A stretch of 64,000 nt of DNA from Escherichia coli (GTDB taxonomy: Bacteria > Pseudomonadota > Gammaproteobacteria > Enterobacterales > Enterobacteriaceae), in NCBI RefSeq assembly GCF_965641715.1, contig NZ_OZ282453.1. One strand, written 5' to 3'. Below, one piece after another: positions 18,604-19,027 of the stretch; positions within the stretch are counted from its first letter, which is position 1, and the number at the start of each line of letters is the position of its first letter. The translations under genes were made by a program, and so were the position numbers. The notes beneath the pieces are model-generated. The model searched no databases. It was not told where the DNA came from and was given only the letters and a program-made list of their open reading frames with translations.

Positions 18604-18867
18604 ATGATCGATCTGGAAAACCAGGAACGGGAGATTATCAATTTAATGTTCAGCCAGCGTATTTCCTGGCTAGCCGCCGTGCGTATCAGGCATAAATTAT
18701 CGCTTGCTCAAGTAAGTAAAATGTTAGGTATCTCGATTAATTCTCTAAAACAGATCGAAAAGACGGAACGGCTTAGCTCAAACATCAAAAGCAAAATGGC
18801 AGAAATTTATGGTTGTCCACCAGAGTTGCTGATATGCCCTTCCTGGATGACGGCTGAACATAAATGA
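18604..18867 (+). CDS. small XRE-family helix-turn-helix protein (87 aa), strain-variable
   Basis: good RBS (aaggaagg); HTH signature LSLAQVSKMLGISINSLKQIEK; followed by AT-rich DNA; sits where K-12 carries yjjJ. Confidence 0.45.
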   Translation: MIDLENQEREIINLMFSQRISWLAAVRIRHKLSLAQVSKMLGISINSLKQIEKTERLSSNIKSKMAEIYGCPPELLICPSWMTAEHK

Positions 18868-18963
18868 ATAGATTCGTGAATAGATACTTGAATGTATTTT
18901 ATTTTCTATCCATATGAAAAATAATAGTAAATCTATAAATCAGTTGCTATTGATGAATAGATA

Positions 18964-18994
18964 CTAAAAAGCCGGAGCAGTCTCCCGCTCCGGC
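18964..18994 (-). terminator. rho-independent terminator downstream of deoD
   Basis: GC-rich hairpin gccggagc...gctccggc followed on the minus strand by a T-run. Confidence 0.5.
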
Positions 18995-19027
18995 TTAACA
19001 CAACAATCGCCTTTCAGCGAAACACAA

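Follow-up and report, generated by a model that had tools for sequence, protein, structure and literature searches.

What became of the kinase gene yjjJ (hipH) in Escherichia coli genomes that carry a small helix-turn-helix (HTH) gene in its place, and to which protein do the 9-bp repeats beside that gene belong? These questions are raised by a 64,000-nucleotide stretch of E. coli DNA (one strand of contig NZ_OZ282453.1, RefSeq assembly GCF_965641715.1; hereafter the window), in which a gene for an XRE/Cro-C1-type HTH protein of 87 amino acids (aa; 18604–18867, + strand) and a set of repeats lie between lplA and deoD. A first-pass annotation, made from the sequence alone, read gene and repeats together as a strain-specific replacement of yjjJ at a toxin-antitoxin-type locus. 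The analysis described here led to another reading, to which we assign a probability of roughly 0.7: the window carries a derived allele, the majority form in E. coli, in which hipH was replaced and an orphaned HipH operator was left behind.

HipH (YjjJ) is a toxic kinase of the HipA family, for which an HTH-dependent DNase activity and a link to persistence have been reported. According to PMC8262856 it is monocistronic and lacks a separate antitoxin. Its HTH "may bind DNA", tight regulation is held to be needed and control of the kinase is given as unknown, with no operator defined (PMC8262856, PMC9948734, PMC11452175); one of these papers reports an effect of cyclic di-GMP (c-di-GMP) at the hipH promoter, mediated by an unidentified factor (PMC11452175). 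No description of a HipH operator was found in the literature searched: queries for HipH "operator" and yjjJ "leaderless" gave nothing relevant, and the motif strings returned only primers and short hairpin RNAs.

Two alleles between lplA and deoD

The interval is bounded by lplA (lipoate-protein ligase; 17556–18572, + strand) and deoD (purine nucleoside phosphorylase; 19028–19747, – strand) and spans 455 bp (18573–19027), close to the 450 bp first estimated. The first-pass annotation had also correctly placed yjjJ here in K-12: the K-12 gene encodes 443 aa and reads from deoD towards lplA, opposite to the 87-aa open reading frame (ORF), which shares the strand of lplA, and its stop codon abuts that of lplA. 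In pairwise blastn of the window with K-12, homology stopped at 18571 and restarted at 18859, the complement of the yjjJ ATG. The 287-bp segment between these breakpoints (18572–18858) is without similarity to K-12 and takes the place of hipH codon 2 to stop (1330 bp in K-12), while the codon at 18859–18861 (CAT on the + strand) is the relic hipH start codon on the – strand. When four HipH proteins were compared with the window by tblastn, no match was obtained: the coding sequence of the kinase is missing.

Shared between the window and K-12, at 88% identity, are the hipH start codon, the proximal and distal repeats, and a strong intrinsic terminator that ends the deo operon (18969–18996, – strand; a 12-bp stem and a T-run, located by terminator scan). 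Two blocks are identical in both alleles, one holding repeat units 1 and 2 and the other the distal unit with the terminator, and the ~60 bp between these blocks cannot be aligned; this AT-rich spacer (18898–18953), the former hipH promoter region in – strand sense, is ~50% identical to K-12. The breakpoints thus confirm a true replacement, of which the repeats, contrary to what had been proposed, are not a part: their DNA is shared with K-12, where it is the 5′ element of hipH.

Population counts were made in 5426 complete E. coli genomes, using 18573–18858 as the cassette query and the coding sequence as the yjjJ query. The cassette was found in 4073 genomes (75%), including BL21(DE3) and O157:H7, and yjjJ in 1348, the two sets not overlapping in these counts. 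Since the carriers of one or the other add up to 5421 of the 5426, the two are alternative and almost mutually exclusive alleles, and the form in the window, first taken to be strain-specific, is the majority one. The ORF is already in RefSeq as "helix-turn-helix domain-containing protein" (e.g., WP_000566150.1), and the allele of BL21 and O157 is an intact one; K-12 itself has yjjJ. K-12 is therefore atypical, with three quarters of E. coli lacking hipH and having a small XRE gene instead, and caution is called for in extending K-12 results on persistence or on the kinase to pathogens and BL21.

Outside E. coli, the cassette is found in E. marmotae and further Escherichia lineages, and a contig of another enterobacterial genus (LplA 89% identical) has an orthologue of the same length and 44% identity directly after lplA. 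Between E. coli and other Escherichia (loci L146, L148 and L149), the synonymous divergence (dS) of the HTH ORF is 0.08–0.12, compared with 0.24–0.30 for lplA, a hint of recombination having carried the cassette from one lineage to another, with the ORF values resting on only 4–6 synonymous differences. A rare third state is seen in E. coli WB61 (locus L005, 2449–2640), where a deletion has left a remnant of yjjJ, annotated as a pseudogene, beside the repeats; in both WB61 and Buttiauxella noackiae (L119), hipH is cut down to its first ~64–67 codons and the repeats are still there.

A tandem array with a distal unit

The window has three exact copies of the motif TGAATAGAT, at 18865, 18877 and 18954, all within 98 bp and in agreement with the first count; shuffled sequences gave an expectation of 0.33 copies, and three were reached in 1 of 100 shuffles. 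Two of the three exact copies carry an ACT extension. A fourth unit, decayed to TGAATGTAT (18889–18897, – strand), had been overlooked; it brings the tandem array at 18865–18897 to three units, repeated every 12 bp. Units 1 (18865–18873, – strand) and 2 (18877–18885, – strand, 12 bp from unit 1) are exact and read ATCTATTCA in the hipH sense, as does the distal unit (18954–18962, – strand). The latter lies 65 bp upstream of unit 3 in the hipH sense (18954 minus 18889), the same geometry as at hipH loci elsewhere.

Repeat conservation was judged from alignments of fetched loci. Units 1 and 2 are perfectly conserved across the sampled E. coli HTH alleles and unit 3 is mutated in all of them, reading TGAATGGAT in most HTH-allele genomes; in K-12 it is TGAATAGAT, and all three proximal units are intact. 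The spacer holds two degenerate inverted copies of the motif, TTCTATCCA and ATCTATAAA, at 18905–18913 and 18931–18939, one of which pairs with the distal unit as an inverted repeat of 83% complementarity; in AT-rich DNA, chance may account for this.

The repeats accompany hipH across Proteobacteria

One genome from each of 100,044 species (298 Gb) was scanned for TGAATAGATNNNTGAATAGAT, which gave at least 120 loci compared with ~9 expected (our own estimate, assuming uniform base composition). Of the 120 loci listed, 70 have a hipH homologue (30–95% aa identity to K-12 YjjJ) within 200 nt, and in all 70 hipH reads away from the motif, as it does in K-12. They come from Enterobacterales, Xanthomonadales, Burkholderiales, Neisseriales-like bacteria, Rhodocyclales, Nitrosomonadales, Alteromonadales, Thiomicrospira and Geomonas. 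The architecture is constant: two to three ATCTATTCA units in the gene sense with a 12-bp period, another unit 65–66 bp upstream of the first proximal one, and 1–17 nt from the end of the array to the hipH start codon, with no Shine-Dalgarno sequence. We hold with high confidence that the repeats are a conserved 5′ element of hipH/yjjJ across Proteobacteria.

In Xanthomonadales a TTGACT –35 hexamer lies just before the array, spaced so that the –10 element would fall in the last unit and transcription would begin at or near the ATG; the mRNA would then be leaderless and the core promoter would lie under the array. A separate set of matches came from a Verrucomicrobiaceae metagenome-assembled genome (MAG; L008–L012), in which five contigs carry the tandem motif 19 nt upstream of an identical ORF for a 354-aa P-loop ATPase; here the search pattern was matched by an element present in several copies and having no relation to hipH.

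These results bear on whether the repeats are instead the operator of the 87-aa XRE protein, regulator and motif having replaced hipH as one unit. The motif begins at the stop codon of the ORF, two units do not vary among the sampled E. coli HTH alleles and the spacer has its two degenerate inverted copies, all of which would fit such a unit. The same repeats, however, stand beside hipH in at least 70 genomes that lack the 87-aa protein, and the protein has no detectable similarity to HipH. Cro/C1-type HTH dimers usually bind palindromes, whereas the array consists of 12-bp direct repeats. Moreover, the repeats decay in other lineages with the HTH allele, and the protein is lost in 41.5% of carriers, two aligned nonsense carriers (L132 and L133) keeping the proximal block. 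We consider a self-contained regulator and operator very unlikely. The possibility that the 87-aa protein is a rearranged copy of the HipH HTH was also examined and rejected: BLASTP detected no similarity between the proteins, and blastn of the cassette against yjjJ gave nothing.

Repeat sequence changes with the HipH recognition helix

An independent sample was obtained from nine plasmid-borne hipH homologues, which were found by protein similarity alone and are thus independent of the motif. Five of the nine have ATCTATTCA-like repeats, among them the hipH paralogue of the ~90–100-kb non-mobilizable E. coli plasmids described below. In three others a different repeat, in the same layout, is accompanied by a different recognition helix in the N-terminal HTH of HipH: SVATLHR with ATCTTCTCA in Vitreoscilla, SRATLMR with ATCGTTTCA in Polaromonas and DRATLLR with ATCGTTGCA in Allochromatium. 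In a metagenomic relative of the Allochromatium homologue (52% identical), whose helix is NRSTLTR, two copies of ATCGTTGCA are spaced at 12 bp and a distal copy lies at 66 bp. At every ATCTATTCA locus inspected the helix is SQxTxSR. A metagenome scan for the variant tandem ATCGTTGCANNNATCGTTGCA returned mostly noise, with a hipH homologue at 1 of 120 loci, and that one fits the model. This pairing of helix and repeat is a first hint of a code linking recognition helix to base sequence.

Because the repeats covary with the helix and travel with hipH on plasmids and across phyla, the N-terminal winged HTH of HipH, which has a weak MarR_2 match, is the candidate binder; that HipH itself binds the repeats is predicted with moderate confidence. 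Where hipH is present, the most likely mechanism would be head-to-tail binding of this domain to the repeats, and, as the array appears to overlap the core promoter of a leaderless or nearly leaderless mRNA, the toxic kinase would in this way repress its own gene. From sequence comparison, the repeats thus appear to be a site of control for the HipH kinase family that had not been described before. They supply a concrete candidate HipH operator, built of 9-bp units with a 12-bp period and a distal site 65 bp away, and probably serving a leaderless mRNA.

A conserved host factor other than HipH, such as a c-di-GMP-responsive regulator of the hipH promoter, could occupy the same DNA. The mapping of c-di-GMP control to the hipH promoter (PMC11452175) is in keeping with this, as are the persistence of orphan arrays in E. 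coli, Serratia and Pantoea and the identity of units between alleles beside an unalignable spacer. A host factor would not, however, account for repeats that travel with hipH on plasmids and across phyla having no single common host factor, nor for a repeat sequence that shifts with the recognition helix of HipH, and we regard it as unlikely.

Among 45 plasmid matches for YjjJ, 31 are non-mobilizable E. coli plasmids of ~90–100 kb with a 35%-identical hipH paralogue. One of these paralogues, on plasmid pE2-2 (NZ_CP048917.1, L140; 486–1790), shares the SQPTISR helix and has an exact ATCTATTCAttaATCTATTCA upstream (448–468). As helix and repeats are the same, hipH-less strains can regain a HipH of the same DNA specificity.

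Origin of the HTH allele

The gene order deoD–repeats–hipH–lplA is shared by E. albertii, Citrobacter, Kluyvera, Pseudocitrobacter, Siccibacter, Cedecea and Buttiauxella, and Erwinia has deoD–repeats–hipH. The shared synteny, the association of the repeats with hipH everywhere and the retention of the hipH ATG and the array in the HTH allele indicate that this allele is derived. In the ancestral state, hipH would have lain between deoD and lplA, reading towards lplA under direct 9-bp ATCTATTCA repeats; its coding sequence, from just after the ATG to the stop, would then have been swapped for the 287-bp segment with its XRE gene on the opposite strand, leaving the start codon, the repeats and the deo terminator in place as an orphaned and slowly decaying operator. 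Units 2 and distal are mutated in E. marmotae, a divergent lineage has lost one unit and the contig from another genus retains only a remnant of the array, as expected of an operator orphaned once hipH had been replaced.

Several points weigh against this account. Units 1 and 2 are 100% identical between the alleles beside a spacer that cannot be aligned, perhaps because selection still acts on the repeats where hipH is absent, although the neighbouring shared DNA is ~95% identical, so that the identity of two units is by itself no evidence of selection. The link between HipH and its putative operator is built from co-occurrence and four cases of variant helices, and the homologue on a Diaphorobacter plasmid, one of the nine, has no repeats. 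Forty-two of the 120 motif loci listed are without hipH, some being orphan operators and others chance or unrelated repeats, and the 70 hipH loci were picked by motif, so that they do not yield the fraction of all hipH genes that have it. A simple sigma-70 consensus scan upstream of K-12 yjjJ found no promoter; the proposed promoter and leaderless mRNA therefore draw on geometry only. Finally, the c-di-GMP factor acting at the hipH promoter (PMC11452175) leaves room for a different protein at this site.

The hipH coding sequence has repeatedly been lost or replaced while the operator stayed in place. Arrays without hipH were seen in Serratia plymuthica (L045), an Enterobacteriaceae MAG and a Pantoea (L071 and L073), in which the array is followed directly by ytjB. 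In Enterobacteriaceae isolate RIT691 (L056) a gene for a 217-aa membrane protein starts at the former hipH ATG, in the orientation of hipH; it matches NCBIfam PRK09867, its description as YjdF-like being an assignment of this analysis. B. noackiae has a hipH pseudogene.

Replacement or deletion right at the hipH ATG, in E. coli, Serratia, Pantoea, Buttiauxella and the Enterobacteriaceae isolate, raises the idea that the orphaned control region is not inert, either serving as a breakpoint for exchange or being active in hipH-less cells. The array would be a preferred breakpoint if the HTH-dependent DNase of HipH could act at its own operator. If still working, it might be a derepressed promoter for RNA antisense to the XRE gene and to the 3′ end of lplA, or it might receive, as a landing site or a decoy, the HipH paralogues from phage-plasmid-like replicons of E. 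coli. The apparent precision of the breakpoints is, however, partly ascertainment, since only events that spared the repeats could be found; we think either possibility quite improbable, and confidence in any present function of the repeats in the window is low. The relic hipH ATG opens a 27-codon ORF, MFSRHPGRAYQQLWWTTINFCHFAFDV (18781–18861, – strand), which lies on the strand opposite the 3′ end of the HTH gene; were the relic promoter active and unrepressed, antisense RNA across that gene would result.

The 87-aa HTH protein

The protein matches Pfam HTH_3 (PF01381) with an E-value of 1.7e-6 over residues 23–76 (model positions 1–55 of 55), as expected for the XRE-type HTH first proposed, and the HTH_19 and HTH_31 profiles match as well. 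A match to phrog_7241 (E = 8.7e-10) covers only profile positions 54–121 of 122, the C-terminal half, whereas its relatives P0081 and P0101 match positions 2–121 and have an extra N-terminal domain relative to the 87-aa protein. The AlphaFold model (pLDDT 86, pTM 0.75) is a Cro/C1-type five-helix bundle with an extra N-terminal helix at residues 4–18. By sequence, no relatives of solved structure were found for this protein or for YjjJ. A word-indexed search for relatives returned only Escherichia/Shigella alleles from the same locus, to which an exhaustive HMMER search added the one syntenic 44%-identical orthologue and distant phrog_7241-type proteins. A search around the gene found no candidate palindromic operator. 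A guessed locus tag, ECs5345, proved to be a different gene, for protein modification.

A premature stop, Q50* (CAG to TAG at 18751–18753, in the region of the recognition helix), was present in 1691 of the 4073 cassette carriers (41.5%), or 31% of all 5426 genomes, and was seen at position 879 of both L132 and L133. Codon 50 is intact (CAG) in the window, and the allele with the stop is flagged as a pseudogene ("internal stop") by the NCBI annotation pipeline, PGAP. At codon 36 (18709) the window has Gln36 (CAA), where all other aligned alleles, including that of E. marmotae, have Glu36 (GAA), so that the substitution, which falls just ahead of the HTH, looks private to the window.

The ORF could accordingly be a non-functional relic, or spurious, in an interval of DNA decaying after the loss of hipH. 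The frequency of Q50*, many frameshifted or truncated variants in the protein database, a relaxed ratio of nonsynonymous to synonymous divergence (dN/dS) of up to 0.67, restriction of the family to this locus and the missing N-terminal domain of the phage relatives are all what would be expected of one. The HTH_3 and PHROG matches are nonetheless significant and the predicted fold confident, the Shine-Dalgarno sequence is strong, length is unchanged at only 44% identity in another genus, and dN/dS (0.2–0.67, as against 0.03–0.04 for lplA) is below 1 in every comparison. We therefore regard a relic or spurious ORF as possible but doubtful, and conclude that the gene is a real but dispensable stand-alone regulator gene and not an antitoxin.

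A solitary antitoxin or anti-HipH factor, whether a remnant of a toxin-antitoxin module or a neutraliser of plasmid HipH paralogues, was weighed in the same way; the first-pass annotation had suspected a locus of toxin-antitoxin type. The gene occupies the place of a toxin gene, a hipH paralogue exists on phage-plasmid-like replicons of E. coli, PADLOC HTH_VI matches the protein at 4.8e-6, and weak matches of HigA, MqsA and HipB type were obtained for it and its relatives. Against these stand the lack of an adjoining toxin ORF, the frequent knockout of the gene by Q50*, and the description of HipH as monocistronic and without a separate antitoxin (PMC8262856). When the protein was compared with antitoxin families, none of the curated models (HipB, HigA, MqsA, Y4mF) was passed, the best matches scoring 12–18 bits against cut-offs of 48–79. 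Without a toxin partner there is no toxin-antitoxin module; the earlier suspicion did not hold, and an antitoxin of either kind is highly improbable. We propose that the 87-aa protein is neither a toxin-antitoxin component nor a binder of the repeats. It is predicted from sequence and fold model to be a Cro/C1-type DNA-binding protein under weak constraint, and its gene, which is probably of mobile-element origin, is taken alone an ordinary accessory gene, already annotated, often inactivated and present in most E. coli.

Relation to known systems

The closest comparison is the K-12 yjjJ/hipH locus itself (Gerdes et al. 2021, PMC8262856), which occupies the same deoD–lplA site with the same upstream DNA; the window differs in lacking the kinase coding sequence, in having 287 unrelated bp instead and in the decay of one proximal unit. 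The hipBA system resembles the hipH locus in that an HTH is tied to a HipA-family kinase and has several sites over its own promoter, presumably holding a toxic kinase in check, with binding by HipH being predicted. HipB dimers, however, bind TATCC-N8-GGATA palindromes, unlike the 9-bp direct repeats with 12-bp period and distal site at 65 bp described here, and the HTH of HipH is fused to the kinase and winged-helix/MarR-like rather than Cro/C1-type. No TATCC-N8-GGATA palindrome was found in the interval; one match with a single mismatch elsewhere in the window is at chance level.

For the 87-aa protein, the phrog_7241 regulators (~122–133 aa; P0081, P0101) have a homologous HTH, an AWR...QIEK...IYGC signature and 33–41% identity. 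In contrast to them, the E. coli protein lacks the ~50-residue N-terminal domain, has a short Escherichia-specific C-terminal tail and is encoded on the chromosome at one fixed locus. Among structures, the best PDB matches of the model by Foldseek were CylR2, C-proteins (C.BclI), P22 c2 and SinR. The five-helix HTH core superposes on CylR2, C.BclI/C.AhdI, P22 c2, SinR and the CapH N-terminal domains (Foldseek probability 1.0, TM ~0.55–0.78, root-mean-square deviation 1.5–2.4 Å over 53–61 residues), whereas identity to these small Cro/C1 regulators is 15–28% with weak E-values (~0.02), and they lack the extra N-terminal helix.

Other features of the locus

The gene order in the window is serB (–), ytjB (+), lplA (+), the 87-codon ORF (+), deoD (–), deoB and deoA. 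The HTH ORF starts 31 nt after the lplA stop and is preceded by a good Shine-Dalgarno match, AAGGAAGG (18592–18599, + strand); since a terminator scan found no + strand terminator between the two genes and the distance is short, the ORF is likely to be co-transcribed with lplA. Its stop codon, TGA, forms the first 3 bases of repeat unit 1. No further ORF of at least 30 aa fits in the lplA–deoD gap, and Rfam covariance models gave nothing at E ≤ 1 in 18400–19200, and hence no match to a structured or small RNA.

A 24-nt direct repeat with 75% identity links the 3′ end of lplA (18516–18539, encoding EQEKELRE) to the 5′ end of the HTH ORF (18610–18633, DLENQERE); it is not kept in the 44%-identical orthologue and may be due to chance. 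On the other side of the interval, the deoD–deoB spacer (19748–19826) is 79 bp in the window and in strain cq9, compared with 56 bp in K-12, and holds a GC-rich imperfect palindrome, ccctctccctgtgggagagggccggggtgagggc, that resembles a small repetitive extragenic element.

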